Counted from the stretch's first letter, positions 40,908-58,670 are shown. The stretch is 64,000 nucleotides of DNA from Candidatus Falkowbacteria bacterium (GCA_043798985.1 JAZDOE010000018.1:8057-72056); one strand, 5' to 3'. Notes: generated from the sequence alone by a model not told the origin. Numbers and translations: made by a program.

Positions 40908-41960
40908 ATGCGTATGGACACTGCGATTTTTGATTATAATTTGCCTAAAAATTTAATCGCGCAACAGCCGGCCAAACAACGAGATCGTTCGCAGCTTTTT
41001 ATTTATAATCGCGCAAACGACGAAATTGAACACAAAAAGTTTTTTGAGCTGATTGATTATTTAAAAAAGGGCGATATATTAGTTTTAAATAACACAAAAG
41101 TATTGCCAGCGCGTCTTTTTGGCAAAAAAGAGCAGACTGGTGGCAATGTTGAGGTTTTGTTGCTTAGACAACTTACGGCCAGGATTTGGGAATGCTTATT
41201 GCGTGTTCGTGGAAATAAAAAAAATACATTTTTGGTTTTTCCAAAAAATTTATCCGCGCAGATTTTAAAACCGCACACGAATGAAACATGGCAAGTTCAG
41301 TTTGATCTGCCGGAAAATGATTTTAAATTGTATTTGCAGAAATATGGCGCAATGCCTTTGCCGCCGTACATTAAATCAAATTCCCCCGAAGGGGCCCCTT
41401 CGGGGCAGGCATCAATTTTGAAAAAACAGTACCAGACGATTTTTGCCAAATATGATGGTTCAGCTGCGGCTCCAACAGCCGGATTGCACTTTACCAAAGA
41501 ACTTTTGTCTAAAATTCGACAAAAAGGTGTGGCAATAAAATATATCACCCTGCACGTTGGCTTAGGCACGTTTGCGCCGGTTCGCGAGCAAACGATTGAA
41601 CAGCACAAAATGCACTCGGAAGTTTATAAAATGAGCCAGCCAACATATAAAACTCTTCTTGCCGCAAAAAAACAAGGCCAGCGAATAATTGCGGTCGGCA
41701 CCACAGTCGTTAGGACGCTGGAAACGGTTTTTAATGCCAGCCGACCGCGATTATCCGGCGAAACTGACATTTTTATTTATCCGGGCTATGACTTTAAAAT
41801 GGTTGACGCGATGATAACGAATTTTCATTTGCCAAAATCAACGCTACTAATGTTGCTCGCGGCATTTGTGGGCAGAGAAAAATTAATGGAACTTTATAAA
41901 ATCGCGATAGAAAAACAATATAGATTTTACAGTTTTGGAGATGCGATGTTCATTGAGTAA
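40908..41960 (+). CDS. queA: S-adenosylmethionine:tRNA ribosyltransferase-isomerase
   Basis: FDYNLPKNLIAQQPA, PLPPYI, AAPTAGLHFT. Carries an in-frame palindromic insert at 41384-41405 (see findings). Confidence 0.85.
   Translation: MRMDTAIFDYNLPKNLIAQQPAKQRDRSQLFIYNRANDEIEHKKFFELIDYLKKGDILVLNNTKVLPARLFGKKEQTGGNVEVLLLRQLTARIWECLLRVRGNKKNTFLVFPKNLSAQILKPHTNETWQVQFDLPENDFKLYLQKYGAMPLPPYIKSNSPEGAPSGQASILKKQYQTIFAKYDGSAAAPTAGLHFTKELLSKIRQKGVAIKYITLHVGLGTFAPVREQTIEQHKMHSEVYKMSQPTYKTLLAAKKQGQRIIAVGTTVVRTLETVFNASRPRLSGETDIFIYPGYDFKMVDAMITNFHLPKSTLLMLLAAFVGREKLMELYKIAIEKQYRFYSFGDAMFIE
41384..41405. repeat. Perfect 22-nt GC-rich palindrome CCCCGAAGGGGCCCCTTCGGGG inside queA
   Basis: Read directly from the sequence. 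It encodes PEGAPSG, between the conserved PLPPYI and YQT motifs. Confidence 0.8.
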
Positions 41961-41995
41961 ATTCTAAGCACGAATCTCGAAATTCTAAACAAGCA

Positions 41996-42080
41996 CGAAA
42001 TTCGAATTTCCCAATATTTGAAACATTCTGATTTCGGGCTTCTGATTTGTTTCGAATTTAGGATTTCGGATTTCAAATTT
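41996..42080. repeat. Intergenic repeat family B (copy 1)
   Basis: 42003-42042 CGAATTTCCCAATATTTGAAACATTCTGATTTCGGGCTTC. Also contains the perfect palindrome GAAATTCGAATTTC. Confidence 0.5.
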
Positions 42081-42089
42081 TAGCAGTTT

Positions 42090-42587
42090 ATGCGTTATTC
42101 CAATAAACAACAACTTGAACAAAAGTATAAAGAAAAGTTGGAAACAGCGAAATTGGATGATCGCGAAATGTTTGAATTAAAAAAGGACATGGAAGAATAT
42201 AAACAAGATAAAATCAAAAAAGCGGGAAAGCGCGGCCGCAAGAACGCTATTAGATTTTATTGCGGAGCAATATTTTTGGTGATATTTCTTGCGGCCGTTG
42301 GTTTAATTTTTTATTTTTATCTGCAAATCAAAGACAATTTGGCCGAAGAATTTTTAAAACAAAAAGAGGCTTTGCCTCAAAATGTTGAGCAGCTGCAAAA
42401 TACGATTACTGACGCGCAAGAAAAAATAAACGCGGCATACGCAACTTATCAAGAAGCGAAAAAGACCTACGAAGAATTGAAAGCAATAAAAAATGCCAGC
42501 GTGGAAAAAATAAATCAAGCAAAAGCGCTTATGGATCAAGCAAGCGTGGCGCTTGAGAATGTCAAATTGCAAATGTCAAATCAATAA
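42090..42587 (+). CDS. Hypothetical coiled-coil protein with one TM helix
   Basis: 165-aa ORF with charged heptads and one hydrophobic helix. Confidence 0.35.
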   Translation: MRYSNKQQLEQKYKEKLETAKLDDREMFELKKDMEEYKQDKIKKAGKRGRKNAIRFYCGAIFLVIFLAAVGLIFYFYLQIKDNLAEEFLKQKEALPQNVEQLQNTITDAQEKINAAYATYQEAKKTYEELKAIKNASVEKINQAKALMDQASVALENVKLQMSNQ

Positions 42588-42618
42588 CAAATTCCAAATG
42601 TCAAAATCAAAATTTATG
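42557..42618. repeat. Intergenic motif family A (AATGTCAAA / TTTGACATT units), copy upstream of rsmI in reverse orientation
   Basis: Three AATGTCAAA units within 62 nt. Confidence 0.5.
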
Positions 42619-43254
42619 TTATATATAGTCGCAACGCCAATCGGAAATTTAAAGGACATTACTTTGCGCGCGGTGGAAGTTTTAAAGAGCGTTGACATTG
42701 TTTTTTGCGAAGATACGCGGCAGACAAAAAAGCTACTGGATCATTATCAAATTGATAAGAAAATGATAAGCTTGCATCAGCATTCCAGCGACGAAAAAAT
42801 CGCAGGGTTACTGCGACAGTTTGAAAATATTGCCTATGTCACAGATGCTGGCACGCCCGGAATTTCTGATCCTGGCAATCGTTTGGTTGAAATCGCAATT
42901 CAACTTAATGTCGCGATTTGTCCGATTCCCGGACCATCAGCCGCAATAGCCGCTCTTTCTGTCGCAGGATTCGCGACTGACAAATTTTTGTTTCTGGGTT
43001 TTTTGCCAAAAAAAGGACAACAAAAAGTTTTTGAAAAAATAAAAAATTCCGACTGCGCGGTTTGTTTTTACGAATCACCGCACAGAATTCTTAAAACTCT
43101 CGGCGCGTTGGAAAAAGTGCTTGAACCAACCCGGCAAATGGTTATTTGCAGAGAATTAACGAAAAAATTTGAAACAATTTACCGAGGAACAGCCGAAGAA
43201 TTGTTAAAACAAGTTAAACCCAAAGGCGAATTTGTCATAATCATTGCACCATAA
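42616..43254 (+). CDS. rsmI: 16S rRNA (cytidine1402-2'-O)-methyltransferase RsmI
   Basis: LYIVATPIGNLKDITLRAVEVLKSVDIVFCEDTRQTKKLL. The alternative ATG at 42598 lies inside the intergenic repeat motif. Confidence 0.75.
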   Translation: MLYIVATPIGNLKDITLRAVEVLKSVDIVFCEDTRQTKKLLDHYQIDKKMISLHQHSSDEKIAGLLRQFENIAYVTDAGTPGISDPGNRLVEIAIQLNVAICPIPGPSAAIAALSVAGFATDKFLFLGFLPKKGQQKVFEKIKNSDCAVCFYESPHRILKTLGALEKVLEPTRQMVICRELTKKFETIYRGTAEELLKQVKPKGEFVIIIAP

Positions 43255-43265
43255 TAATTTTTGCT

Positions 43266-44741
43266 ATGAAAAAATTCTATATCACAACTACTTTGCCGTA
43301 CGTTAACGCTGATCCGCACATTGGTTTTGCTTTGGAAATTGTGCAAGCTGACGCTATTGCCAGATACCAACGTCTGCTTGGTAAGGAAGTAATTTTTAAT
43401 ACAGGCACAGATGAACATGGCTTGAAAATTTATCGCAAGGCATTGGAAAACAAAGAGGAACCACAGCAATATTGCAATAGATACGCGGCAAAATTTGACG
43501 CGTTGAAACAGGCGTTGAATTTGAGCTACACCAATTTTATCCGCACCACAGACACACACCACATGGCCGCGGCACAGGAATTTTGGCGGCGGTGTTTAAA
43601 AAACGATGATATTTATAAAAAAAATTACAAAATCAAATATTGCGTCGGATGTGAATTGGAAAAAACCGATTCAGAATTAGTTGATGCTAAATGTCCTTTG
43701 CATCCGAATTTAGAATTAGAAGTAATTGAAGAAGAAAATTATTTTTTTAAATTTTCTAAATTTCAAAAATCATTATTAAAATTTTACGAGAAAAATTCCA
43801 GTTTTGTCATTCCAACCAACCGTTTACAAGAAATTAAAAATTTTGTGGAAAGGGGATTGAAGGACTTCAGTATTTCTCGCTTGAAAATAAAAATGCCTTG
43901 GGGCGTGTCAGTGCCGAACGATGAAGAGCAAGTGATGTATGTGTGGTTTGACGCGTTGATCAACTATATTTCTACGCTTGGCTGGCCCAATGATGAGAAA
44001 AATTTCAAAAAGTTTTGGCCGGGCGTGCAAGTGGCTGGTAAAGACAATCTGCGCCAACAGAGCGCCATGTGGCAGGCGATGTTGATGTCTGCTGGATTGC
44101 CAAATTCTGAACAGATTTTTATACATGGTTTTATTACTTCGGACGGACAAAAGATGAGTAAGTCTCTCGGAAATGTAGTTGATCCGTTTGAAATTGTGAA
44201 AAAATATGGAACAGATGCCACGCGCTATTTTTTGCTTGGTGGCTTGCCATCTTATGATGACGGCGATTTTACCATTGCCAGGTTTGAAGAATTTTACACT
44301 GCCAATCTTGTCAATGGCATAGGAAACCTCACTTCCCGCATTTTGACAATGTTGGAAAAATATTCTGATAACAAAATTCCAGCCAAAGCAAAAGGGCTTT
44401 TGGATATTGATAGTTTTTGGCAAAGCTATGATGTCGCGTTTCGCAATTTTGAATTTGATAGCTTAATTGAAATCATCAACAATTTAGTGGCCAAATGCGA
44501 TAGTACTATTTCTGAACAAAAACCATGGGAAAAAGCCAAAAAAGGCGAGAACGTTTCTGTTCTGCTTTATCAATTGGCGGAAACTTTGCGCCATCTCGCT
44601 GTCGCGTCGCTTCCAATTATTCCAGAATCAGCCGAAAAAATACTGCAACAACTTAACACAGAAGACAAAACGCATTCTTGGGGGAAATTGAGCAAAGGCA
44701 ATGTCATCAAAAAGAGCGAGATATTGTTTCCCAGATTATAA
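43266..44741 (+). CDS. metG: Methionyl-tRNA synthetase (short form)
   Basis: FYITTTLPYVNADPHIGFA matches the HIGH region. KMSKSLGN is the KMSKS motif. Confidence 0.9.
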   Translation: MKKFYITTTLPYVNADPHIGFALEIVQADAIARYQRLLGKEVIFNTGTDEHGLKIYRKALENKEEPQQYCNRYAAKFDALKQALNLSYTNFIRTTDTHHMAAAQEFWRRCLKNDDIYKKNYKIKYCVGCELEKTDSELVDAKCPLHPNLELEVIEEENYFFKFSKFQKSLLKFYEKNSSFVIPTNRLQEIKNFVERGLKDFSISRLKIKMPWGVSVPNDEEQVMYVWFDALINYISTLGWPNDEKNFKKFWPGVQVAGKDNLRQQSAMWQAMLMSAGLPNSEQIFIHGFITSDGQKMSKSLGNVVDPFEIVKKYGTDATRYFLLGGLPSYDDGDFTIARFEEFYTANLVNGIGNLTSRILTMLEKYSDNKIPAKAKGLLDIDSFWQSYDVAFRNFEFDSLIEIINNLVAKCDSTISEQKPWEKAKKGENVSVLLYQLAETLRHLAVASLPIIPESAEKILQQLNTEDKTHSWGKLSKGNVIKKSEILFPRL

Positions 44742-44751
44742 AGCACGTAAA

Positions 44752-44803
44752 TTTTGACATTTGGATTTAATTTGACATTTTAATTTTGATATTTGAAATT
44801 TAC
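44752..44803. repeat. Intergenic motif family A copy upstream of cvpA
   Basis: TTTTGACATTTGGATTTAATTTGACATTTTAATTTTGATATTTGAAATTT. Confidence 0.55.
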
Positions 44804-44809
44804 AAACGT

Positions 44810-45313
44810 ATGTTGCTATTTGACTACATTTTGCTCGGTGCATTGTTACTTTTCGTGTTTTACGGTTTTCGCGCCGGCTTTATACAAAGTGTCGGCGCGC
44901 TAATCGGCTTGGTCGTTGGTTCAGTTTTTGCCAGCCGTTATTTTGAGGCAATCGGCAATATTCTCGGCGGCTCAAATTTGATGAAAATGCTGGCGTTTTT
45001 CATCTTGTTCGGGTTGATCACAAAACTGATTGGTTTTGTTTTCAAAATAGTCGGTAAAATTTTCAAAATTATTACAGTTTTACCGCTTTTGGCACAGTTG
45101 GACAAATTGTTGGGCGCGATTTTCGGGGCCGCCGAAGGTATTTTATTTTTGGCGATCATGTTATTTTTCTTGTCAAAATTCCCAATCAGCGCGTGGCTTA
45201 CGAATTCAATGGGCGCTTCAATTATCACGGCAACATTATTAAAAATCTCCGCGATATTCATGCCGCTATTTCCAGTCGCGATCAAACAAATAGAAACATT
45301 AATCAAAAAATGA
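44810..45313 (+). CDS. cvpA: CvpA-family membrane protein
   Basis: MLLFDYILLGALLLFVFYGFRAGFI is a CvpA-like N-terminus, followed by 4 TM helices. The ORF track gives 44786. Confidence 0.6.
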   Translation: MLLFDYILLGALLLFVFYGFRAGFIQSVGALIGLVVGSVFASRYFEAIGNILGGSNLMKMLAFFILFGLITKLIGFVFKIVGKIFKIITVLPLLAQLDKLLGAIFGAAEGILFLAIMLFFLSKFPISAWLTNSMGASIITATLLKISAIFMPLFPVAIKQIETLIKK

Positions 45314-45314
45314 A

Positions 45315-46148
45315 ATGATTGACACGCACGCGCATGTAAATTTCAATGCGTTCAAAAAAGATTCAGATGAAGTTATAAAAAGGGCATTATTAAACAACGT
45401 CACGATTATTAATGTTGGCGCACAATTTACAACAAGCACTCGCGCAGTTGTTTTTGCGGACGACTATGCTAATTGTTTTGCCGCGGTTGGTTTGCATCCG
45501 ATTCATTTGCAAGACATGACAATTGAAGAAGAGGGCGTAAGTTTTACAACTAGAAAAGAAAATTTTTCATACGAAGATTATAAAAAAATGGCGAGTCAAC
45601 CCAAAGTTGTGGCAATTGGCGAAACTGGTTTAGATTATTGGCATTTGAACGATCAAGAGCCGTTGGAAATCGCGATTGAAAGACAAAAAAAAGTGTTTCA
45701 CGAACATATTAAATTGGCAAATGAATTAAACCTGCCAGTAATCGTTCACTGTCGGGGGGCAAATGGCAACATGGATCCAGCTTATGTTGAAGTTTTGGAA
45801 GAATTAACAAAACAACCGCCAAAAAACGGGGGAGTAATGCATTGTTATGGCGGACCAATTGATTTGGTTGAGAAATTTACAAAACTTGGACTTTATATTA
45901 GTTTCAATGGAATTCTAACTTTTGATAAAACCGGAAAACTTGCGGAAATTTTAGCCGCAACGCCAGACAATAGAATTTTAGTTGAAACAGATTGTCCATA
46001 TTTGACGCCAGAACCGTATCGTAGCAAGCGCAATGAACCTGCGTTTGTTGAATTGGTCGTGCAAAAAATCGCCGCGATAAAAGGTGTGCCGTTTGATGAA
46101 GCTGACAAACTGACAACAACTAACGCGAAACGACTATTTGCAATATAA
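45315..46148 (+). CDS. tatD: TatD-family metal-dependent hydrolase
   Basis: MIDTHAHVNF, GETGLDYW, HCRGA and ETDCPYL metal-ligand motifs. Confidence 0.8.
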   Translation: MIDTHAHVNFNAFKKDSDEVIKRALLNNVTIINVGAQFTTSTRAVVFADDYANCFAAVGLHPIHLQDMTIEEEGVSFTTRKENFSYEDYKKMASQPKVVAIGETGLDYWHLNDQEPLEIAIERQKKVFHEHIKLANELNLPVIVHCRGANGNMDPAYVEVLEELTKQPPKNGGVMHCYGGPIDLVEKFTKLGLYISFNGILTFDKTGKLAEILAATPDNRILVETDCPYLTPEPYRSKRNEPAFVELVVQKIAAIKGVPFDEADKLTTTNAKRLFAI

Positions 46149-46151
46149 AAA

Positions 46152-47906
46152 ATGCCAATTTACTCGCCAAAACCATTCGTTTCTACCTATGAAAATAAAC
46201 GGGCGCTAATTCTGCTTATTTTTTTTATTATTTTTGCGGTGGCAATTATCATCAGACTTTTTGATTTACAAATAATCAAACACAATTATTTTGCCGCGCT
46301 CGCTGAAGACCAGCACGAGATTTTTAAAAAACTTGTGCCGGAGCGCGGCGAAATTTTTTGTCATAATAGCGCGAGCGACCCATTTGCCATTTATCCTTTG
46401 GCAATAAATCGCGATGTTTATTTGGTTTACGCTGTTCCGACTTTGATTACAAACGCGGAACAAACTTTAAAAAAGCTTGAATCAGTTTTATTGCTGGCAA
46501 ACGTTTCGCGCGAACAATTATTAGCGCGACTGAACAAGCAAAATGATCCGTATGAACCGATTTTAAAACGCGTTGAAGAAGAACAAATCAAACAATTGGA
46601 AGAACTCAACATTGCTGGCATAAAATGGCTTAAAGAAAAAGGCAGATTTTATCCGGAAAACAATTTGGCTTCGCACATTCTTGGTTTTGTGAACCAAGCG
46701 GACAATCAGGAAACCGGCGCGTATGGGCTTGAAGCATATTACAACAAAGAACTCACCGGCGTGCCCGGATTTTTGCGCGGCGAAGTTGGCAACCTTGGCA
46801 ATTTTATCGCGCTTGGCCAGCAAGACGTGGTGCCAGCTGAAAATGGCGCGGACGTTATTTTAACAATAGACAAAAACATTGAATTTTTCAGTTGCAAAGA
46901 ATTGGCAATAGCGGTGAGAGAATTTGAAGCTGACAATGGCTCTTTGATTGTGATGGAGCCGCAGACCGGAAAAATTTTGGCAATGTGCAATGCGCCTGAT
47001 TTTAATCCAAACAAATACAATGAAGTTGAAAGCGTTAAAGATTTCACAAATTCAGCCATAAGCGTCGCGTACGAGCCGGGTTCTATTTTTAAGCCTGTGA
47101 CGATGTCAGCGGCAATAGAAGAAAAAGCCGTCACGCCTGAAACAACATATCAGGATCCCGGGCAAATCAAAATTTCTGATTTTACAATTTACAATTATGA
47201 CAAAAAATCTCACGGCACGCGCACAATGACGCAGGTGCTTGAAGAATCGCTGAATACTGGCGTTGTTTTTGCCGGTCGTAAAATTGGAATTGAAAAATTT
47301 ACAGAATATGTAAAAAAATTCGGCATGGGCGCAAAAACAAAAATTGACATGTTCAATGAAGCTGTTGGCAATATTGCGTCCTTAAACAAAAAACATGAGC
47401 TTTACATGGCAACAGCGTCGTTTGGACAGGGGATTATGACAACGCCTTTGCAAATGGTTTCCGCCTACTCGGCAATTGTGAACAACGGCAAATTGATGCG
47501 GCCATATATTGTTGAAGAATTGCGCTTTGACAATAAACCAGCGCAGATTACACAGCCGCAGGTCGTCAGACAGGTGATTTCGCCTGAAACAGCGAAAAAA
47601 GTCGCGGCAATGCTGGTTTCTGTTGTAAACAATGGCCACGCGAAAAACGCCAAGATTCCCGGCTACCTTGTCGGCGGAAAAACAGGCACAGCTCAAATTG
47701 CTGATCCAAATTCTGGAAAATATAGCGAAAATGTCACGCATTCTTTTGTGGAGTTTGCGCCGTTCAACAACCCTAAGTTTGTATTAATTGTAAAATTGGA
47801 AAACGTTAAAAAAGTAAAATACGCGGAAAGTTCAGCTTTGCCAACGGCAACAAAAATCGCGAAATTCATTTTGGATTATTACGCGGTTGAGCCGGAAGTG
47901 AAATAA
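46152..47906 (+). CDS. Penicillin-binding protein 2 / FtsI-type peptidoglycan D,D-transpeptidase
   Basis: N-terminal TM. The transpeptidase motifs SxxK, SxN and KTGT are present (GSIFKP, SLN, GGKTGTA). Confidence 0.8.
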   Translation: MPIYSPKPFVSTYENKRALILLIFFIIFAVAIIIRLFDLQIIKHNYFAALAEDQHEIFKKLVPERGEIFCHNSASDPFAIYPLAINRDVYLVYAVPTLITNAEQTLKKLESVLLLANVSREQLLARLNKQNDPYEPILKRVEEEQIKQLEELNIAGIKWLKEKGRFYPENNLASHILGFVNQADNQETGAYGLEAYYNKELTGVPGFLRGEVGNLGNFIALGQQDVVPAENGADVILTIDKNIEFFSCKELAIAVREFEADNGSLIVMEPQTGKILAMCNAPDFNPNKYNEVESVKDFTNSAISVAYEPGSIFKPVTMSAAIEEKAVTPETTYQDPGQIKISDFTIYNYDKKSHGTRTMTQVLEESLNTGVVFAGRKIGIEKFTEYVKKFGMGAKTKIDMFNEAVGNIASLNKKHELYMATASFGQGIMTTPLQMVSAYSAIVNNGKLMRPYIVEELRFDNKPAQITQPQVVRQVISPETAKKVAAMLVSVVNNGHAKNAKIPGYLVGGKTGTAQIADPNSGKYSENVTHSFVEFAPFNNPKFVLIVKLENVKKVKYAESSALPTATKIAKFILDYYAVEPEVK

Positions 47907-47998
47907 ATTTCAAATATCAAATTACAAATGTCAAAGTTTGGAATTTGATATTTGACATTGATTTGATATTTGACATTTGAGCTTTGAAATTAATTGTG
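47907..47998. repeat. Intergenic motif family A, inverted double copy upstream of murF
   Basis: AAATTTCAAATATCAAATTACAAATGTCAAA in reverse orientation, followed by TTTGATATTTGACATTGATTTGATATTTGACATTTGAGCTTTGAAATT in forward orientation. Confidence 0.55.
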
Positions 47999-48012
47999 CT
48001 ATATTTGATGGC

Positions 48013-49308: not shown

Positions 49309-49319
49309 AAATTAAACGC

Positions 49320-49394
49320 GCCGGGTTCGTCTAGTGGTTAGGACATTAGGTTCTCAACCTAAGAACACGGGTTCGATTCCCGTACCCGGTACCA
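49320..49394 (+). tRNA. trnE: tRNA-Glu (anticodon CTC)
   Basis: Manual cloverleaf. Acceptor GCCGGGT/ACCCGGT. D-stem GTCT/GGAC. Anticodon stem TTAGG/CCTAA with loop TTCTCAA. T-arm ACGGG-TTCGATT-CCCGT. Discriminator A followed by an encoded CCA. Confidence 0.85.
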
Positions 49395-49403
49395 AATGGG
49401 TTC

Positions 49404-49434
49404 TCGCCCTTCGGGCGACCACCCGCAGGGTGGG
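49404..49434 (+). other. Two tandem GC-rich hairpins immediately 3' of tRNA-Glu
   Basis: TCGCCC-TTC-GGGCGA (49404-49418) and CCACCC-GCA-GGGTGG (49419-49433). The same GC-hairpin style as the intragenic palindromes. Confidence 0.5.
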
Positions 49435-49460
49435 ACACCCCTTGGCGGTACCAAAAATAC

Positions 49461-50164: not shown

Positions 50165-50189
50165 TTGACTCGCTAACGCGCAATTCTAA

Positions 50190-50227: not shown

Positions 50228-50332
50228 GTTATTGACTTTTAATAAAAAACGTGCAAATATTATTACAGATTCAGCGGAAATACCGCGGAACCTTAACAAC
50301 CTCAGATTGTCCCATGGGGACAGGAGGGTCGC

Positions 50333-51097: not shown

Positions 51098-51120
51098 TCC
51101 GCGGACTGTGACCAACAAGG

Positions 51121-51148
51121 AGAGAGCTAAAAGTTCTCTCCGTTTTTT
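51121..51148 (+). terminator. Rho-independent terminator closing the GC-rich insert
   Basis: GGAGAGA-GCTAAAAGT-TCTCTCC followed by GTTTTTTTT. Confidence 0.6.
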
Positions 51149-51206
51149 TTAACAAACATTAACATTTCATTTTGGGGATAGTTGTGATATTATATGTCTA
51201 TAAAAT

Positions 51207-52355
51207 ATGAAAATAGCAATCAATCTTACGCGAGAAAGCGTTGGTGGCATCACATGGTCTAACATTAATTTGATTAACCATTTGTATGGTTTGGATTACG
51301 AATTCGTTGGTTTGGAATTAAACGGCAGGATGTACATGAAAGGTCCGTCTCTGTTTAGAAATTTTTCGCCTGAAATTTTTGAACATCATATTATTAACAT
51401 TCATCACTTACCGCTGATTGGCATTTTAGACAAAGCCAAAAATATTAAAGACGTTGAAGCCGCCTATAAAGAGCCGATAAAAATTATCAGGAATGTTTTG
51501 AGAGAAACAAAACCAGACATCATTTTATTAAGCGGCACATACTATATTCCTTGGCTCATATCAATAGCCGCAAAACTGGAAAAAATCCCTGTTGTATTGT
51601 GGTATTCCGGAGTCCTATCCAGAGAAACTGAAAGCCAGCCCGATCACAGAAAAAGGCTTTTCTCTGCAATGGAAAAAAGCCTTGCGTCTCGGGTGGCCAG
51701 AATTGTTTTCCCCTCACGACTCTGCAAAGATGTCGTAGAAAAGGAAGTTGTGAAACACAAAATCAAAAACAGTTACATTATACCAAACCCGGTTTCAAGC
51801 ATTTTTACAGAACATTGCGCCGTAGAATATTCGCTTGTGCGCAGAATCGCGGCGGTTGGCCGTTATTCAAAGGTAAAAAATTTTGATTCATTTTTCGCGT
51901 TGCACAAAGAACTTTTGCGACGCAAATGGCGGCATAGCGCCTGTTTCGTCACCAATCCTGATGCGCGCATTAAAAAACTTCCAAAGGCAATTGAAGTTCT
52001 TCCGCCAATGACCCCTGATGGTTTAAAAAAATTTTATATTTCTCAAGGTTTAATAGTTTGTCCATCAACATTTGAAACTTTCGGGAATGTTCCGATGGAA
52101 GCCGCTTGTCTCGGCGTTCCAGTATTGGTGAGCGACAAAATGGGCTGCGCGGAAATACTAAAAAAAGTTGGTCTTGAAAACATGGTAATATCATTTGATG
52201 ATATTGGCAAAGTGGCTGACCGCGCGCAACAGTTATGCGGTCAATCAATACTGCCCCAACAATTAAATGCGCTTAAAAGAATCTTAGATAACCATTTAAT
52301 AAGCGAAGAAATTAATGCTGTACTGCTCAATGTAATCAAGCGCTCCGTGAATTGA
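51207..52355 (+). CDS. Glycosyltransferase family 1 (GT4)
   Basis: C-terminal FETFGNVPMEAACLGVPVLVSD. The N-terminal half is GT4-like. Confidence 0.6.
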   Translation: MKIAINLTRESVGGITWSNINLINHLYGLDYEFVGLELNGRMYMKGPSLFRNFSPEIFEHHIINIHHLPLIGILDKAKNIKDVEAAYKEPIKIIRNVLRETKPDIILLSGTYYIPWLISIAAKLEKIPVVLWYSGVLSRETESQPDHRKRLFSAMEKSLASRVARIVFPSRLCKDVVEKEVVKHKIKNSYIIPNPVSSIFTEHCAVEYSLVRRIAAVGRYSKVKNFDSFFALHKELLRRKWRHSACFVTNPDARIKKLPKAIEVLPPMTPDGLKKFYISQGLIVCPSTFETFGNVPMEAACLGVPVLVSDKMGCAEILKKVGLENMVISFDDIGKVADRAQQLCGQSILPQQLNALKRILDNHLISEEINAVLLNVIKRSVN

Positions 52356-52621
52356 CTTTGCGTTGTTAGCGCGCTATACTGAACTAAGATAAATAACTAA
52401 AATTTATGTTTGGATTTTTTGAAAAACAAGCTACTGAAAAGGCGGGGTTCACGAGTCAAGAAAGCGCAAGATTAAAAGAGAGTTGTAAAACGCCAGAGCA
52501 AACAACTACTGCCGAACTTTTTGGCGCAAGCTCCGAGTTCCTAGAGAAACGCTTACGCGCTTAATTTAATATTTGCAGATTCGTAACATTTGTAAGATTC
52601 GTAGGTTCGTAGCCATAACTT

Positions 52622-52897
52622 ATGACAAAAATTGAACAAATTGACATTATAATCGCGAAACTTGATGTTGATATAAAAGATGAATCAAAAACACTGATGG
52701 CTGATTTTTTTCGGTCAATTCAGGACCAGCCGCTTTTTGACAAAATGGTTGACCTGCTCAACCGATTCCCGTCGGTTTTAGATAATTTTGCCAAATGTTT
52801 TCAGGATAAAATCGGGTTTTTCAAAAGCAATGGCGCTGATACTGATTGGCAAAAAATCATTGATGTTGAAAAACAAGCGATAGAGAATATTCAATGA
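52622..52897 (+). CDS. Hypothetical protein
   Basis: 91-aa ORF with no motif. Confidence 0.3.
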   Translation: MTKIEQIDIIIAKLDVDIKDESKTLMADFFRSIQDQPLFDKMVDLLNRFPSVLDNFAKCFQDKIGFFKSNGADTDWQKIIDVEKQAIENIQ

Positions 52898-52928
52898 ATT
52901 GAGTGGGTTGTTTATCTCGCTATCATTT

Positions 52929-52968
52929 ACCCACCAAAAGCTTACGCATTTAGGTGGGTTGTTTTTTT
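52929..52968 (+). terminator. Putative terminator upstream of lexA
   Basis: ACCCACC...GGTGGGT stem (17-nt loop) followed by TGTTTTTTT. Confidence 0.4.
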
Positions 52969-53039
52969 ACTTAGAAAAACAAAGTTATCCACACTTGCTG
53001 TTCTTGTTCGCTTTTTGTTCGGTGGTATAATAGTAATAT

Positions 53040-53651
53040 ATGAATAAAGCTATCCTAACAAAAAGACAGGCCGAACTGTTGAACTTCGTCAAAACTTTTC
53101 AGAAAGATTATGGTTATTCACCGAGCTACCGCGAAATCGGACAAGGACTTGGATTAAAATCAACCGCGACTGTTGCCGGTCATTTGCAAACCTTAAAAAA
53201 GAAGGCGTATTTGAAATTTTTTGAAAATGAAAATCGCTCTATTGAACTGACGCACAAATCGTTCTGCCTCGGTAAAACCATGGACTTACCGCTTGTGGGG
53301 CTAATCACTGCTGGCGAGCCGATTGAGGCCATAGAAGATAGGGAGATGTTTGCTGTGCCAGCGGCATTGATTCGGGACGAAAACAGCTTTGTTTTGAAGG
53401 TAAAGGGCAGTTCAATGATTGATGAGGGGATTTGGGATGGCGATTATGTTGTGGTTGAGCGAAATCACTACCCTAAAAATGGTGATATTGTCGTCGCTTT
53501 ATTGAGCAATGCTTATGCCACGCTTAAAAAATTCTATCGCGAAAAAAACGCGATAAGACTTCAGCCGGCAAATCCGCTAATGCAACCAATTTATTGCAAA
53601 GACGTTGCAATCCGCGGAATTGTCCGCGCAATCATCAGAAAATTCGCGTAA
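53040..53651 (+). CDS. lexA: LexA repressor (S24 peptidase)
   Basis: N-terminal wHTH (YSPSYREIGQGLGLKSTATVAGHL). Catalytic Ser in GSSM, and Lys in ATLKKF. Confidence 0.85.
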   Translation: MNKAILTKRQAELLNFVKTFQKDYGYSPSYREIGQGLGLKSTATVAGHLQTLKKKAYLKFFENENRSIELTHKSFCLGKTMDLPLVGLITAGEPIEAIEDREMFAVPAALIRDENSFVLKVKGSSMIDEGIWDGDYVVVERNHYPKNGDIVVALLSNAYATLKKFYREKNAIRLQPANPLMQPIYCKDVAIRGIVRAIIRKFA

Positions 53652-53702
53652 ACTTATTTTATTTGCGGCGATGTTGTAAATTTGTTATACTGGCATAACA
53701 AC

Positions 53703-54865
53703 ATGGCACTAATATCCATTGAAAAAATGCCAGATTTGAATAGCCGAATTGTTTTAGTTCGCTGCGATTTTAATATCAACCTAACTGCTAAAAAACAACT
53801 ATTGGACACGACAAAAATAATTCGCAGCTACAAAACAATAAATTATTTATTGAACAAAGGCGCGAAAGTTGTTATCATTTCGCACCTTGGCAGACCAACG
53901 CGAAAAGATGCAAAGCTTTCGTTGCGGCCGATTTATAATTTTCTTAAAAAAGATTTTCCAACGGCAAGGTTTATTGAACGATCTGTTTTAACAATCAGCG
54001 AAAAACCTGTAAATGGCGATTTATTTTTGCTGGAAAACATTCGTTTTTACAAAGGCGAATGGAAAATGACGCAAAATTCGCGAAGCATCTTGCCACATTG
54101 GCGGATTTTTACGTGAATGAAGCATTTAGCGCGTCGCACAGAAAACACGCTTCGCTCGCGGCAATCACAAAATATCTAAAACCATTTCATGGTTTTAATT
54201 TTATTGAAGAAGTTTCAACGTTAAAAAATCTGAAAATTAAAAAGCCAGCGCTGCTCATTCTCGGCGGGCTGAAAGTTGATGACAAATTGCCAATGATAGA
54301 AAAATTGGCGCCAAAATTTTCAAATATTTTACTTGCTGGTGGATGCTCGTTTTTATTTTATAAAAAATTAGGAATTAACGTTGGCGCATCCAAAATTGAT
54401 AAAGCAGCGCTGGCCTGCCTCGCCGGCGGGCAGGCTTCAACGTCGCTGCGACGTTTGTTAAAAAATAAAAAGATATTATTGCCGATTGATTTGATTGTCG
54501 CGAACGCGAAGACGCTGAAGAAGGCTAGGAATGTAGCTTGTAGCAGGGTAGGTTGTGGGATAGAAAAAGGTGAAGCGATTTTTGATGTTGGCCCTCGCAC
54601 AATTTTAAAATGGTCAGAACTTATAAAAAAAGCGCGGACAATAATCTGGCTCGGGCCAGTTGGTTATGTTGATCACAAACAATTCAGTCACGCGAGCGCG
54701 ATGCTGGCGAAAATTATTGGCAGCCGCGCGAGCGGACGAGCCGTTGGAATCGTTGGCGGCGGAGAAACATTGTATTCGGTGAACAAATCCGGCATGGCAA
54801 AATATTTTGATTACATTTCAACCGGCGGCGGCGCTACTTTAAAATTTTTGAGTGAAAAGGAGTGA
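53703..54865 (+). CDS. pgk: Phosphoglycerate kinase, split into two ORFs by an apparent -1 frameshift at about 54059-54062
   Basis: ORF 53682-54116 carries VLVRCDFN, ISHLGRP and LLENIRFYKGE. ORF 54059-54865 carries MENDAKFAKHLATLADFYVNEAFSASHR and GGLKVDDKL. Joining them with a -1 shift restores a collinear Pgk. Confidence 0.75.
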
Positions 54866-54877
54866 GACAATTCTGTC

Positions 54878-54975
54878 ATTTCGACCCTGTTTAGCGGGGG
54901 AGAAATCCCTCGTAAAAGGCATTTGCCAAGGGATTCCTCACCCTTTCCAAGGGTTCGGAATGACATCAACGCATC
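54878..54975. repeat. GC-rich structured element with about 13-bp terminal inverted repeats (MITE-like or small structured RNA)
   Basis: GTCATTTCGACCC at 54878-54890 pairs with GGGTTCGGAATGAC at 54958-54971. These flank internal hairpins (GGGGGAGAAATCCCTC, and CCCTT-TCC-AAGGG). The element is intergenic and its GC is far above local background. Confidence 0.3.
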
Positions 54976-55017
54976 CTTAACAAAAACCAACCATTAAACA
55001 ATAAAATTTTAAAACGT

Positions 55018-55806
55018 ATGTGTGAAACAAACAACTCAACTTGCTCATGCAAAATGTGGGCGCACAGAATAGGGAGCATTATTTTGGCGGTTTTGGCGAT
55101 TTGTTTATCATTATTTTTGATATTACAAGCGCGCAATTTAATAAAAGCTTACAATTACATTGGCAAATCCGAACAAACTCCAAACGTGGTGACCATCAGC
55201 GCAGAAGGCAAAGTGACGGCCGTTCCAAATGTCGCGACAGTTCAAATCAGCACAACCACAACAAGGGTGACAGTTGCTGACGCGCAAGCTGAAAACACGA
55301 AAAAGATGAATGACCTGATCGCAGGCGTTAAAAAAGAAGGAGTTGCTGACAAAGACATAAAAACAAGCGACTATTCAATTTATCCGCAATATGACTGGAA
55401 TGGCAACAAAAATGTTTTGTCCGGATATACTGTTAATCAAACATTGACTTTGAAAATCAGAGACACGAAAAAAATAAACGCGATCTTAAAATTGGCTGGC
55501 GAAAAGGGCGCGAACAGCATTAGCAATTTGAATTTTGAAATTGATGATCAGGACGCGCTAAAAGAGCAAGCTCGTGAAAAAGCGATTGTGAACGCGAAAG
55601 CAAAAGCAGAGACACTGGCAAAATCTCTTGGCGTTAAATTGGATAAAATAATTTCGTTTTCAGAATCAACTGATATGCCGGTTTACATCGGCTATTCAAA
55701 ATACGCGGAAGGCGGTGGAATGGGCGGCGGGGGAGCATCACCAAACATTCAAACAGGTGAAAACGAAATCAAGGTTTTCGTGAATATCACGTACGAAATT
55801 TTATAA
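55018..55806 (+). CDS. SIMPL-domain (DUF541, BP26-like) protein
   Basis: N-terminal TM, then VTISAEGKVTAVPNVATVQIS...YTVNQTLTLKIRD, typical of SIMPL proteins. Confidence 0.6.
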   Translation: MCETNNSTCSCKMWAHRIGSIILAVLAICLSLFLILQARNLIKAYNYIGKSEQTPNVVTISAEGKVTAVPNVATVQISTTTTRVTVADAQAENTKKMNDLIAGVKKEGVADKDIKTSDYSIYPQYDWNGNKNVLSGYTVNQTLTLKIRDTKKINAILKLAGEKGANSISNLNFEIDDQDALKEQAREKAIVNAKAKAETLAKSLGVKLDKIISFSESTDMPVYIGYSKYAEGGGMGGGGASPNIQTGENEIKVFVNITYEIL

Positions 55807-55808
55807 AT

Positions 55809-57065
55809 ATGAAAATAGCGAAAATTTGGGCGCAGGAAATTTTAGATTCGCGCGGCAATCCGACTGTTGAAGCTTTTGTTAAACTTGAAAACAAAATGAT
55901 TGCCAGCGCGAGTGTGCCGTCCGGCGCGTCAACCGGCGTTCACGAAGCATTGGAATTGCGCGATAATGACAAAAAACGCTATGGCGGCAAAGGCGTTTTG
56001 ATTGCCGTGAAAAATATTGAAGAAAAAATCGCGCCGGAATTAAAAGGAATTAACGTCACACATCAGAGAACCGTTGACGCGCTCATGTTAAAATTGGACG
56101 CGACCAAAAACAAATCAAAATTAGGCGCCAACGCAATTCTAGCGGTTTCGCTAGCATGTTGTCGCGTTGGCGCGGCCAGCCTTAATTTGCCGCTATACAA
56201 ATATATCCGCGCGACCTATGGCTTAAAAGAGCGCGGATGGAAATTTCCAATTCCAACGATGAACATTATCAATGGCGGCAAACACGCGGACAATTCGCTT
56301 ACTGTTCAGGAATTTATGATTGCTCCGATTGCCAAAACTTTTACAAAAAGAATGCAAATCGGCGATGAGGTTTTTCAGACGTTGAAAAAATTATTGAAAG
56401 AAGCTGGCCAGCAAACATTGGTTGGCGACGAAGGCGGCTTTGCCCCTAACCTCAAGAAAAACGAGAATGCACTTGATTTTATTATCACAGCAATAAAATC
56501 AGCTGGTTACAAACCCGGTAAAGATGTTTTTTGCTGCGTTGATTTGGCGCTGTCTGAATATTTTGACAAAAAAACCAACAGCTACTCGTTAAACGACAAG
56601 TTAGGTAAAAAATTTATTTCCGCTGACGCTGTAATCAAAACAATTAGCGCGTGGACTAAAAAATATCCGATTTTGTCACTTGAAGATCCGCTCGCAGAAG
56701 ATGATTGGGACAATTGGCAAAAATTAACAAAAAAACTTGGCAAAAAAGTGACGCTGGTCGGCGACGATTTGTTTGTCACAAACACACAACGTTTACAAAA
56801 AGGCATTGACGCGAAAATCGCCAACGCGATTTTAATCAAACTCAATCAAATCGGCACGCTTTCTGAAACCATTGATGCCATTTATCTTGCGAAAAAGAAT
56901 AATTACAAAGTAAGCGTTTCGCATCGCTCTGGCGAAACGTGCGACACATTTATCGCAGATTTGGCGCTGGCAGTGAACGCTGATTTTATAAAAGCTGGCT
57001 CTTTGTCGCGCTCCGAAAGACTTTGCAAATATAACAGACTACTAGAAATAGAGAATGAATTATAA
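55809..57065 (+). CDS. eno: Enolase
   Basis: ILDSRGNPTVEA, SVPSGASTGVHEALELRD, IKLNQIGTLSETI. Confidence 0.9.
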   Translation: MKIAKIWAQEILDSRGNPTVEAFVKLENKMIASASVPSGASTGVHEALELRDNDKKRYGGKGVLIAVKNIEEKIAPELKGINVTHQRTVDALMLKLDATKNKSKLGANAILAVSLACCRVGAASLNLPLYKYIRATYGLKERGWKFPIPTMNIINGGKHADNSLTVQEFMIAPIAKTFTKRMQIGDEVFQTLKKLLKEAGQQTLVGDEGGFAPNLKKNENALDFIITAIKSAGYKPGKDVFCCVDLALSEYFDKKTNSYSLNDKLGKKFISADAVIKTISAWTKKYPILSLEDPLAEDDWDNWQKLTKKLGKKVTLVGDDLFVTNTQRLQKGIDAKIANAILIKLNQIGTLSETIDAIYLAKKNNYKVSVSHRSGETCDTFIADLALAVNADFIKAGSLSRSERLCKYNRLLEIENEL

Positions 57066-57068
57066 TTT

Positions 57069-58670
57069 ATGAAAACAAATAAGTTGGTTGCACTTATTAT
57101 TTTGGATGGCTGGGGCATTGCTCCGCCCAACGATGGAAACGCGATTGCTCTCGCGAAAACTCCATATTTTGATCAGCTGATTAGCCGCTATCCAACGCGC
57201 ACGCTTTTGGCGTCTGGCGAGGCCGTTGGTTTGTCTTGGGGCGAAATGGGAAATTCAGAAGTCGGGCACCTTAATCTTGGCACCGGCAGAATTTTTTACC
57301 AAAATTTGCCACGCATTGACAAAGCAATTAGCGACAAAAGTTTTTTTGAAAATCCGCAATTTTTAGGCGCGATTGAACACGTGAAACAAACAAATGGCGA
57401 TTTGCATTTGCTCGGAATTTTAAGCGAAGGCCGCGTGCATGGCATGTTGTCTCATCTTTACGCACTGCTGGATCTTTGTAAAAAAGAACATTTTAAAAAA
57501 GTTTACATTCACGGATTTCTTGACGGAAGAGACACGATTTACAATAGTGGCGCGGATTTTGTAAAAGAATTACAAGAAAAAATTGACGAGATTAAAGTTG
57601 GCGAAATCGCCAGTTTGTGCGGCCGGTTTTACGCGATGGATCGGGATAGACACTGGGAAAGAACAGAAAAAGCTTATCGCGCGATTATTGAAGGCAAAAG
57701 TGAAGCATACGCGAAAAACGCAGTCAGCGCGATTGACGCGTCTTACCACAAAAAAGTTTTTGACGAAGAATTTGTGCCGGTTGTTATCGGTTCCGCGCAA
57801 AAGCCCGTAGCAACAATTAAAAATGGCGATTCTGTAATATTGTTTAACTATCGTTCTGATCGCGCGAGACAATTGGCAGAAGCATTAACAAACCCTAAAT
57901 TTGACAAATTTGAGCGCGTCCCTATGGCAGACATTTTCGTTGTCAGCATGACAGAATACGAAACCCCGAAGGGGTCCCCTTCGGGGACCAATAATAACAT
58001 CCATGTCGCGTTTCCCAAAGAACCTGTAAAAACATGTTTGGCAAAAACACTTAGTGAAAACAAAATAAAACAATTGCACGTCGCGGAAACGGAAAAATAC
58101 GCGCATGTCACTTTTTTCTTTAACGGCGGCAAGGAGGAGCCGTATCCAATGGAATCACGAATTATGATCCCATCGCCGCGCGTTTCATCCTACGCGGAAA
58201 TTCCGGAAATGTCTGCAAAAAAAATCAGCGACGCGCTTGAGCAGGAAATTTTGAAAGAAAATATAAATTTTATTGTTGTCAACTATGCAAATCCGGATAT
58301 GGTTGGACACACCGGCGACTTAAAAGCGGTTATAAAAGCGGTTGAAACCACTGATAAACAATTGGAACGCGTTATAAATTTAATTTTATCAAAAAAAGGC
58401 ATCGCGCTTATTGTTGCTGACCATGGCAATGCCGAGGAAATGATAAATTTGCAAACAGGCGAAATTGATAAAGAGCACAGCACAAATCCAGTTCCGTTTA
58501 TTGTTATCGGAGAAGAATTTGAAGGAAAATTATTGGAAACAGAAGAAGCAATTGGTCGTGATTTGAGTTTACTGCGACCGTCCGGTATTCTTAGCGACTT
58601 GGCGCCGACGATTCTGAAACTTTTGAACATTAAACGTCCGAAAGAAATGAGCGGGCAAGACTTATTGTAA
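57069..58670 (+). CDS. gpmI: 2,3-bisphosphoglycerate-independent phosphoglycerate mutase
   Basis: LIILDGWGIAPP, GNSEVGHLNLGTGR, ADHGNAE. Contains the palindromic insert at 57964-57986. Confidence 0.85.
   Translation: MKTNKLVALIILDGWGIAPPNDGNAIALAKTPYFDQLISRYPTRTLLASGEAVGLSWGEMGNSEVGHLNLGTGRIFYQNLPRIDKAISDKSFFENPQFLGAIEHVKQTNGDLHLLGILSEGRVHGMLSHLYALLDLCKKEHFKKVYIHGFLDGRDTIYNSGADFVKELQEKIDEIKVGEIASLCGRFYAMDRDRHWERTEKAYRAIIEGKSEAYAKNAVSAIDASYHKKVFDEEFVPVVIGSAQKPVATIKNGDSVILFNYRSDRARQLAEALTNPKFDKFERVPMADIFVVSMTEYETPKGSPSGTNNNIHVAFPKEPVKTCLAKTLSENKIKQLHVAETEKYAHVTFFFNGGKEEPYPMESRIMIPSPRVSSYAEIPEMSAKKISDALEQEILKENINFIVVNYANPDMVGHTGDLKAVIKAVETTDKQLERVINLILSKKGIALIVADHGNAEEMINLQTGEIDKEHSTNPVPFIVIGEEFEGKLLETEEAIGRDLSLLRPSGILSDLAPTILKLLNIKRPKEMSGQDLL
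57964..57986. repeat. GC-rich palindrome CCCCGAAGGGG-T-CCCCTTCGGGG inside gpmI
   Basis: Identical to the queA element apart from a central T. It encodes PKGSPSG. Confidence 0.8.

Follow-up and report, generated by a model that had tools for sequence, protein, structure and literature searches.

Two conserved housekeeping genes in a 64,000-nucleotide stretch of Candidatus Falkowbacteria DNA (hereafter the window) each contain a near-identical GC-rich palindrome in frame, which raises the question of how the same short sequence came to lie within unrelated coding regions. Copy 1, CCCCGAAGGGGCCCCTTCGGGG at 41384-41405 (unstranded, as are all the palindromes given below), lies in queA, which encodes tRNA ribosyltransferase-isomerase (40908-41960, + strand; Pfam PF02547, E 1.6e-132), and contributes the peptide PEGAPSG. 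Copy 2, CCCCGAAGGGGTCCCCTTCGGGG at 57964-57986, has a central T and lies in gpmI, the gene for cofactor-independent phosphoglycerate mutase (57069-58670, + strand; Pfam iPGM_N and Metalloenzyme), where it encodes TPKGSPSG. Both conform to a perfect palindrome of 22-24 bp, composed of (G)CCCCGAAGGGG, 0-1 nt and CCCCTTCGGGG(C), and termed P here. The 11-mer CCCCGAAGGGG occurs four times on the two strands of the window, these being the two palindromes, against 0.19 expected, a count reached in none of 100 shuffles; the window also has five perfect palindromes whose arms reach 10 nt or more with a loop no longer than 1 nt, where Markov-1 simulations gave 0.39 and, in 100 runs, never more than 3. 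An initial annotation, made from the sequence alone, had given the sequences and positions of these palindromes, which match exactly and lie far above chance expectation, and the in-frame peptides that it reported, SPEGAPSGQ in queA and TPKGSPSGT in gpmI, were both recovered. Its figure of about 35% GC for the host genes was too low (39-42% without the inserts), and its view of P as a dimer of two C(UUCG)G mini-hairpins is less well supported, since the predicted fold is a single long hairpin of 9-10 bp (-16.9 kcal/mol as RNA for copy 1) and one variant has concerted changes in its arms. All six frames of P are free of stop codons, and its peptides are rich in Pro, Gly and Ser (PEGAPSG, PKGPLRG, PRRGPFG).

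Alignment with relatives showed that P in queA and gpmI is an insertion and not ancestral. The queA copy falls between the PLPPYI and YQT motifs, where the nearest QueA relatives (87, 87, 72 and 65% identity) lack exactly 7 residues (21 nt) and have a loop of equal length in all four. Copy 1 is absent from the queA DNA of the relatives L001, L002 and L003, and no half-palindrome was found in the relatives' empty queA sites. QueA had been thought to exceed the E. coli protein by about 8 residues; an insert is indeed present, but its length is 7 residues against close relatives and 11 in alignment with Thermotoga maritima 1VKY. In GpmI the insert lies immediately beyond residue 298, where the iPGM_N domain match ends, and its 8 residues are absent from 16 of 16 aligned relatives (57-76% identity). 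Structural modelling, suggested earlier as a check on whether the inserts occupy loops, agreed: the AF2 model of QueA has coil at residues 147-166, and in that of GpmI the insert alone forms a disordered loop, no other segment having a pLDDT below 50. For a palindrome of 22-23 nt, the genes gained a net 21 nt (queA) or 24 nt (gpmI), and the junctions therefore vary by -1 to +2 nt. Across 38 low-GC copies of P, 28 have no flanking direct repeat and the remainder have repeats of 1-3 nt of varying length, no target-site duplication of fixed length being found among them; the flanks show a preference for G/C at -1/+1.

The identical palindrome was found at no fewer than 36 genome loci and at least 36 metagenome loci, giving at least 66 distinct copies. 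Two outcomes had been named beforehand as grounds for rejecting an inserted element, namely orthologues with equivalent loops and the absence of further copies; neither was obtained. At least 22 of the genome loci are labelled as Candidate Phyla Radiation (CPR) lineages, including Berkelbacteria, Peribacteria, Doudnabacteria, Paceibacteria, Jorgensenbacteria, Saccharibacteria, Falkowbacteria and Kaiserbacteria, and across many unrelated CPR bacteria the palindrome lies within genes, between them or in broken tRNA copies. Degenerate copies occur close by, up to 4 copies in 8 kb, and no solo half-sites were found in about 390 kb of fetched loci. Local statistics are biased, the loci having been chosen for containing P.

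At least 20 of the 66 copies are in frame inside conserved genes, at least 18 of these genes being outside the window. The hosts include the CCA-adding enzyme, SOD, SMC, MurD, MiaA, RecG (twice), ComEC, OFOR-beta, KsgA, QueG, TrmD and PNPase, and the open frame runs uninterrupted through the coding copies. The copy in SOD corresponds to a 7-residue gap in alignment to solved structures (the net lengths for SOD and the CCA enzyme come from distant alignments), and in all four cases examined the insert coincides with a gap in homologues or a modelled coil.

The identical palindrome thus occurs in genes, in spacers and in broken tRNA copies of unrelated bacteria, and is therefore apparently an undescribed, very small selfish element. 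We consider it probable that P is a REP-like mini palindromic insertion element of 22-24 bp that has spread within and between CPR genomes; the polarity of insertion, the number of copies and the coding copies all match the earlier proposal that mini palindromic elements of a so far undescribed family are tolerated in frame. No previous description of P was found in the literature searched. We infer that P would enter where DNA is broken, duplicating no fixed length of target, that selection would purge copies that shift the frame or strike structured segments, and that hairpin-templated correction (quasipalindrome template switching) may preserve its perfect symmetry; a copy in L051 with concerted changes in its arms, described below, speaks for the last of these. 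No transposition event, intermediate or within-population polymorphism of P was observed.

The closest known parallel for in-frame insertion is with the Rickettsia palindromic elements (RPE), palindromic repeats that lie in frame in unrelated housekeeping genes, where the extra peptide is tolerated, and that, like P, occur in both coding and non-coding DNA without an encoded transposase (PMC10969869). RPE are about 150 bp long (PMC10969869) and form ten families restricted to Rickettsia, and membership would call for some 100-150 bp and a conserved peptide of about 35-50 residues, whereas P is a single perfect hairpin of 22-24 bp that adds 7-8 residues and occurs in many CPR classes. No Rickettsia record is present among the 36 genome loci with P, most of which are CPR MAGs. 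P was therefore rejected as an RPE on size and on occurrence in Rickettsia, while sharing insertion in frame into unrelated conserved genes; a sequence relation is not expected, and there are no comparison data.

REP/REPIN sequences with RAYT resemble P in being short, GC-rich, dispersed palindromes without target-site duplication, some copies of which are tied to one nuclease gene (definition of REPs after PMC3733652). REPs are extragenic, imperfect, 20-40 bp long with a GTAG or CGTC head, present in hundreds of copies, and flank an HUH tyrosine transposase. P, in contrast, is a perfect palindrome, often intragenic and low in copy number, its associated gene encodes a GIY-YIG nuclease, and its ends are CCCC/GGGG with no GTAG or CGTC tetranucleotide. 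Thus P fails as a REP/REPIN by its head, its extragenic site and its copy number (at least 20 of 66 in ORFs, 1-5 exact copies found per genome), and it fails as a MITE by the lack of a fixed-length target-site duplication. In yeast mitochondria the var1 GC cluster is an in-frame GC-rich element in a coding region. We know of no bacterial counterpart of mitochondrial hairpin elements at the size of P, nor of a nuclease/tRNA-fragment module for such elements. The mitochondrial GC clusters and hairpin elements of Volvox, sponge, placozoan and Nematomorpha are GC-rich like P, lie in AT-richer compact genomes, intrude in frame into coding sequence and show presence/absence polymorphism (PMC6649704, PMC2670323, PMC7813641), but are organellar and usually 30-300 bp.

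A possible source of mobility lies near the start of the window. A truncated 5' copy of tRNA-Trp (253-333, + strand), extending from the acceptor 5' strand to the T-stem 5' strand when compared with the intact tRNA, carries in its anticodon loop a 24-nt near-perfect palindrome, CCCCACTGCTCGCGAGCAGCGGGG (288-311), with one A/C mismatch, CCCC...GGGG ends like those of P and CCA on both sides (RNA fold -16.9 kcal/mol, z -3.9). It is followed by a stand-alone ORF for an 81-residue GIY-YIG nuclease (336-581, + strand; PF01541, E 8.9e-12) and, 8 nt 3' of the stop codon, by an intact tRNA-Trp(CCA) (589-662, + strand; ARAGORN and Rfam). Besides this GIY-YIG ORF, no nuclease gene of the mobile-element type was found in the window, and Pfam scans of the remaining ORFs gave no transposase or recombinase (the rest of the genome was outside the scan). 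The module at 253-662 has the same architecture as modules that contain P, with a different palindrome; the window-like form recurs in L081 and L082, and the form with P is found in L047, L037, L044 and L060. Relatives L078 and L079 have the GIY-YIG ORF without tRNA fragment or palindrome, both of which L081 and L082 possess. The hairpin flagged earlier in the tRNA-Trp fragment occupies the place of the palindrome in equivalent modules of other genomes. It had also been considered related to P, as had a hairpin at 49404-49433; both exist and fold strongly, but their sequences differ from that of P, the latter being the tRNA-Glu trailer, a separate element of 51 nt.

In the modules with P, the palindrome is found directly upstream of the GIY-YIG ORF, within the D-loop of a 5' tRNA fragment (tRNA-Tyr, tRNA-Ile or tRNA-Ser), at positions differing by 2 nt. 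Five tRNA-Ser/GIY-YIG modules have P as their best-conserved block, invariant while the ORFs and tRNAs have 58% mean column identity, and P occupies two positions, 2 nt apart, in the tRNA-Ser modules. A GIY-YIG ORF is present within 300 nt of seven of the 66 copies, where 1.47 would be expected, and none of 5000 permutations gave as many. Perfect palindromes whose arms measure 9 nt or more lie within 150 nt upstream of 9 of the 18 GIY-YIG hits scored (8 of 17 distinct ORFs, a disrupted one in L020 having matched twice), compared with 4.8% of random windows. Among loci fetched through the nuclease alone, three of five have an upstream palindrome, the near-perfect one of the window included. Five stand-alone ORFs match PF01541 (E 8.9e-12 to 8.8e-16), and the CPR proteins, of 81-86 residues, consist of the catalytic domain alone, with no activity shown. 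This enrichment lends support, in the absence of cleavage data, to the alternative raised in the initial annotation that P is a nuclease target. The free-standing GIY-YIG homing endonuclease SegB of phage T4 is likewise encoded by a small gene among tRNA genes, and cleaves in the tRNA gene region to leave mostly 2-nt 3' overhangs (PMC2330249), which may be compared with the 2-nt spacing of P in the tRNA-Ser modules. The CPR cassettes differ from SegB in being chromosomal, in encoding 81-86 residues, and in being flanked by a truncated tRNA duplicate and preceded by a palindrome; as a GIY-YIG homing cassette, the module at 253-662 has the expected catalytic domain (PF01541), without cleavage data.

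It is possible, though inferred and not shown, that P is mobilised by these nucleases. The small, stand-alone, tRNA-adjacent enzymes would supply the breaks or recognise P, which is the most speculative step and one that we put forward only tentatively; P would in that case stand to the nuclease as REP sequences stand to the RAYT transposase. A fuller two-part CPR system, in which tRNA-anchored nucleases of about 80 residues act with perfect palindromes of 22-26 bp (CCCC...GGGG) as cis-sites aimed at tRNA loops, and seed housekeeping genes in frame off-target, is a conjecture that is similarly doubtful. Only about 10% of P copies are near a GIY-YIG gene, neither window copy is (the 336-581 ORF is 41 kb away), and the subfamily beside P elsewhere differs from that of the window.

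That P stays conserved in modules which have otherwise diverged is explained by a selected cis-function no less well than by selfish mobility. P might be bound or cut by a conserved CPR protein, might serve the GIY-YIG cassettes as an operator or as a hairpin governing RNA stability, or might be an uptake-type signal, its genic copies being by-products or kept for function. Very distant lineages share the identical 22-mer, variants retain the C4/G4 blocks with changes clustered at positions 5 and 7, and both arms of one copy, CCCCAACGGGGCCCCGTTGGGG in L051, have changed in concert, its flanks equalling those of a normal copy 90 nt away. Such a site nevertheless seems unlikely to account for P, whose copies come from insertion and not substitution, include degenerate ones within ORFs, and have no common position relative to genes outside GIY-YIG modules. 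P occurs sporadically, in a few tens of 185,579 species among the matches listed, and the exact copies found in any one genome number 1-5. Uptake signals, in contrast, are present in hundreds to thousands of copies per genome; with two copies in 64 kb, similarly few elsewhere, and an insertion origin, P was rejected as a DNA uptake sequence (DUS/USS).

Alternatively, P could be non-mobile filler, captured while double-strand breaks were mended by end joining or short-patch copying, its source being either a palindromic oligonucleotide present in abundance or existing copies of P. The variable junctions and lack of target-site duplication would agree with this, a palindromic single strand could by inference self-anneal into a blunt duplex, and the L003 relative encodes a protein with a LigD_N domain. 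Yet we know of no source for such an oligonucleotide, Pfam scans found no Ku or LigD among the window ORFs, and repeated landing in tRNA D-loops is left unexplained, so that capture appears quite improbable. Mutation is known to yield perfect palindromes by template switching, and local formation of each palindrome from existing sequence, by this quasipalindrome conversion or by hairpin-primed synthesis, is plausible for singletons in the window such as the 30-nt perfect palindrome TGTAGAGACGGGATATATCCCGTCTCTACA (6568-6597), which overlaps a window-specific 4-residue insertion in a membrane protein and accounts for a net gain of only 12 of its 30 nt. As a general origin it is very unlikely, and for P it is ruled out by the shared sequence, the same 22-mer recurring in at least 66 unrelated flanks and the relatives' empty queA sites lacking a half-palindrome. 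Assembly or sequencing artefacts and chimeras can scarcely be entertained: each source protein is known from a single contig and palindromes can confuse de Bruijn assemblers, but both copies preserve the reading frame, the flanks are not inverted duplicates, and the same in-frame palindrome is recovered from independent NCBI, JGI, ENA and Logan assemblies, with several contigs in both collections.

To our knowledge, no mobile or insertional repeat as short as P has been described, and if the preferred reading of P as a mobile element is right, the same holds for dispersed insertion elements. In that case P would also be the first bacterial case, Rickettsia aside, comparable to the selfish palindromes that inhabit protein-coding genes. 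CPR genomes are otherwise very poor in mobile elements. P supplies a concrete mutational origin for the short loop insertions, specific to particular lineages, that are common in CPR proteins, and if the two-part system were true, palindromes would be a major source of the many that are unexplained; annotators are warned that such Pro/Gly-rich segments would be DNA-level parasites and not functional motifs. Truncated tRNA, palindrome and minimal GIY-YIG gene recur as a trio, which gives a testable starting point towards a new mechanism of mobility or targeting driven by nucleases.

Similar insertions are not confined to P. The GC-rich palindrome GCCTGCCGGCAGGC (1423-1436), distinct from P, lies within a window-specific 9-residue insertion in a Mur ligase and belongs to the same class of event, though to another family; the L003 relative has a different palindrome, GCCCCGCCAATGGCGGGGC, in the same Mur ligase loop. 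When the window was compared with L003 orthologues, four of the six window-specific insertions of at least 3 residues were found to carry hairpins.

A perfect palindrome of 22-24 bp occurs in two protein-coding genes of the window, as CCCCGAAGGGGCCCCTTCGGGG at 41384-41405 in queA (ORF 40908-41960) and as CCCCGAAGGGGTCCCCTTCGGGG at 57964-57986 in gpmI, which encodes a cofactor-independent phosphoglycerate mutase (ORF 57069-58670). When the window was read back, both copies lay where the initial annotation had placed them, and both are in frame as it had claimed, encoding SPEGAPSGQ in QueA and TPKGSPSGT in GpmI, two proteins with 100% identity to Candidatus Falkowbacteria MAG proteins; the GC content of the host genes, given there as about 35%, was measured at 39-42%. 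The 11-mer arm has four occurrences in the window, which are the two palindromes with both strands counted, against 0.19 expected, and none of 100 shuffles reached four. Perfect palindromes with arms of at least 10 nt number five in the window versus 0.39 in simulations.

The proposal that the two copies are insertions is borne out by relatives that lack them. The nearest QueA relatives (87, 87, 72 and 65% identity) are all without the seven residues and share one loop length. Exactly 21 nt are missing at the queA site in the DNA of three of these relatives (loci L001, L002 and L003), and none of these empty sites contains a half-palindrome. The eight residues in GpmI are likewise absent from all 16 aligned relatives (57-76% identity). 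Alignment to T. maritima QueA (1VKY) leaves an 11-residue gap at the insert, and alignment to the Geobacillus mutase (1EJJ) gives gaps at the GpmI insert as well. In the AlphaFold model of GpmI (mean pLDDT 88.6) the sole segment below 50, residues 300-308, is the insert, predicted to be coil between two strands directly past the end of the iPGM_N domain match; the QueA model also has coil at the insert, but is weak there (pLDDT below 50 over 150-192), and nothing beyond "coil" can be read from it. As a separate observation, three CPR homologues of QueA (P0016, P0054 and P0010) have unrelated insertions rich in Pro/Ser/Ala/Gly, both in this loop, behind the PLPPYI motif, and in other loops; short GC-rich inserts may land repeatedly at the site.

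Comparison of the window with its L003 orthologues (63-75% identity, one pair 42%) revealed hairpins or palindromes in four of six window-specific insertions of at least three residues, namely those in a Mur ligase (1437), a membrane protein (6584), queA and a second Mur ligase (48619); L003 has a palindrome of its own in the same loop of the ligase found at 1437 in the window. Further GC-rich palindromes or hairpins, for which insertion is not implied, lie in ORFs for a ZIP transporter (2879-2900), a radical SAM enzyme (11795-11815), phosphoglycerate kinase (PGK; 54413-54433), a nucleotidyltransferase (59954-59968) and a GT1 glycosyltransferase (63683-63705), and CCTGCC...GGCAGG arms are common to several of these five.

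The palindrome is dispersed well beyond this contig. A scan for the exact palindrome, with zero or one central base, in one genome for each of 185,579 species recovered it at 36 or more loci, at least 22 of them labelled CPR and from many classes, with several copies in some genomes. At least 36 JGI metagenome loci also have it, some on contigs recovered in the genome scan as well; pooled and freed of duplicates, the two scans yield at least 66 unique exact copies. Degenerate copies occur near exact ones; the 8 kb of locus L041, for example, contain four copies. No copy was present in the viral contigs of IMG/VR, and a phage vector is therefore unsupported.

Recognisable genes with long open frames contain at least 20 of the copies. 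Stop codons are missing from every frame of the palindrome, which encodes PEGAPSG, PKGPLRG or PRRGPFG, the reading frames being used in the ratio 8:9:3; two of the three PRRGPFG cases are in C-terminal tail segments that appear by eye to be of low complexity. The hosts include the CCA-adding enzyme (between its LLGR and KDID motifs), Fe/Mn superoxide dismutase (SOD), SMC, MurD, MiaA, RecG (one exact and one degenerate copy), ComEC, the beta subunit of a 2-oxoacid:ferredoxin oxidoreductase, a radical SAM enzyme, a NUDIX protein, KsgA, QueG, TrmD, the tails of PNPase and of a type IV coupling protein, and a GIY-YIG protein itself. In SOD the palindrome is a clean seven-residue gap when aligned to solved structures. 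A mini-intron was rejected: the coding copies hold frame, as translation predicts and as removal by splicing or excision would not need, and there is no positive evidence for removal.

Together, these data are probably best read as a REP-like mini palindromic insertion element, which survives in genes only in frame and in loops. It behaves like the Rickettsia palindromic elements, but is about six times shorter and in a different phylum. It resembles REP sequences, yet lacks their head tetranucleotide and their extragenic habit, and no RAYT transposase appeared among the window ORFs scanned with Pfam. Coding palindromes and GC clusters of mitochondria are similar to it as well.

The predicted RNA fold of every copy is a single hairpin of 9-10 bp (-17 to -19 kcal/mol). 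The initial annotation had described a pair of mini-hairpins, a structure disfavoured by the long hairpin being the minimum-free-energy fold, by the absence of any solo 11-nt half-site and by one variant that covaries across the arms; it is not fully excluded, since the mismatches of degenerate copies are concentrated in the GAA/TTC triplets. The covarying variant is in L051, where one ORF has two copies 90 nt apart with identical flanks, the second of which, CCCCAACGGGGCCCCGTTGGGG, has both arms altered in concert, implying that the symmetry is actively kept. Quasipalindrome template switching can preserve palindrome symmetry without selection. That the palindrome is a selected cis-site is considered unlikely. 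A transcription terminator was rejected, as no consistent T-run follows the copies in a flank listing inspected by eye, and Rfam at gathering thresholds matches two tRNAs only, with no known RNA family over the palindromes. On one high-GC metagenome contig (L053, 1115-1147) one and a half copies are arranged as CCCCGAAGGGG CCCCTTCGGGG CCCCTTCGGGG, which, judged from sequence, is a hint that the 11-nt half may undergo duplication by itself.

The junctions were also informative. Net lengthening amounts to 21 nt for queA and SOD and to 24 nt for gpmI, and probably also to 24 nt for the CCA-adding enzyme, as inferred from motif spacing. A G precedes the palindrome in 55% of cases, with a C following it, so that many copies are 24-nt palindromes. 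A classical transposon was rejected because the copies have no consistent target-site duplication, their flanks show no conservation past this G/C at -1/+1, and no transposase or recombinase emerged when 59 ORFs of the window, some 50 of which are distinct and gene-sized, were scanned with Pfam. The junctions fit instead a course in which the palindrome enters at breaks, the ends are slightly processed, and selection then retains the copies that keep the frame. That the palindrome is merely filler DNA captured during break repair is given slightly less credence than a cis-site. An origin by local template switching is refuted for the palindrome sequence, as the flanks of the copies are unrelated and a local origin is therefore excluded. 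An assembly artefact is considered very unlikely.

There is an association between the palindrome and small GIY-YIG genes beside tRNAs. The window has a module at 253-662, in which a tRNA-Trp copy, truncated and bearing the 24-nt near-perfect palindrome CCCCACTGCTCGCGAGCAGCGGGG in the anticodon loop, precedes a GIY-YIG ORF of 81 residues (336-581; PF01541) and then an intact tRNA-Trp (589-662). Among relatives of this ORF, fetched without regard to any palindrome, L081 has the same layout with a perfect palindrome, ATCCAGCCTTTCGCGAAAGGCTGGAT, at the same anticodon-loop site, and L082 has it with CCCCGCCCTTCGCGAAGGGCGGGG, also perfect, in a pseudo-tRNA-Cys; two of the fetched relatives have none. 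A perfect palindrome with arms of at least 9 nt lies no more than 150 nt upstream of nine of 18 scored GIY-YIG hits (eight of 17 distinct ORFs, one disrupted ORF in L020 having matched twice) versus 4.8% of random windows. Seven of the 66 copies of the palindrome have a GIY-YIG ORF within 300 nt where 1.47 are expected, and none of 5000 permutations reached seven.

In L047 a 26-nt 5' fragment of tRNA-Tyr carries the palindrome in its D-loop, with a GIY-YIG ORF 10 nt later and then an intact tRNA-Tyr. The arrangement in L037 and L060 is of this type, but with tRNA-Ser, and there, relative to its place in the equivalent fragments of tRNA-Ser in L044 and L014, the palindrome lies 2 nt deeper in the D-arm; L034 (tRNA-Ile) and L039 (tRNA-Ser) have a tRNA fragment and palindrome with no ORF between. 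When five tRNA-Ser modules are aligned (58% mean column identity), no block is better conserved than the palindrome. Dependence of the element on GIY-YIG nucleases is tentative, a lead rather than a result. The module recalls T4 segB, a free-standing GIY-YIG gene in a tRNA cluster. In the searchable literature, neither the palindrome nor the module turned up as described, whether the sequence was looked for or palindromes, REPs or MITEs of CPR/Patescibacteria; palindromes and hairpins also go unmentioned in a paper on tRNA introns of Patescibacteria.

Other features near tRNA genes were also seen. Other CPR genomes share the module layout, at tRNA-Trp, Cys, Tyr, Ser and Ile, and have a perfect palindrome in each case. 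A second copy of the tRNA-Glu 3' end (CGGTACCA, 49387-49394) occurs at 49446-49453, and the two copies enclose a 51-nt GC-rich element (fold -28 kcal/mol, z -4.4) that resembles a small insertion accompanied by duplication of 8 nt from the end of the tRNA. L020 has a GIY-YIG cassette between duplicated tRNA-Asn 3' ends. Another conserved GC-rich motif, ATCCTTCGCTAAAGCT(T/A)CGGA..GCAGGC, occurs immediately downstream of tRNA genes, or in their vicinity, in distant CPR genomes (L020 2669-2700, L034 5581-5610, L027 ~7340-7370) and is probably another short element family.

Elsewhere in the window, PGK is in two overlapping ORFs (53682-54116 and 54059-54865), its conserved sequence changing frame after ...RFYKGE, near 54055-54065, beside an A-run; the split is a 1-nt indel, and the gene may be a pseudogene, contain a frameshift site or have been misread in sequencing. 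Genes that neighbour each other in the relative L003 are separated in the window by about 30 kb (9142-39151) of glycan and phosphonate-type biosynthesis genes. Among the products of this block are a 1208-residue protein that fuses PEP mutase, TPP decarboxylase and Fe-ADH, B12-radical SAM enzymes, numerous glycosyl- and methyltransferases and a DegT aminotransferase. GC skew runs unusually high, at about 0.13-0.31 as far as 32 kb, beginning at the window's start and covering most of the block.
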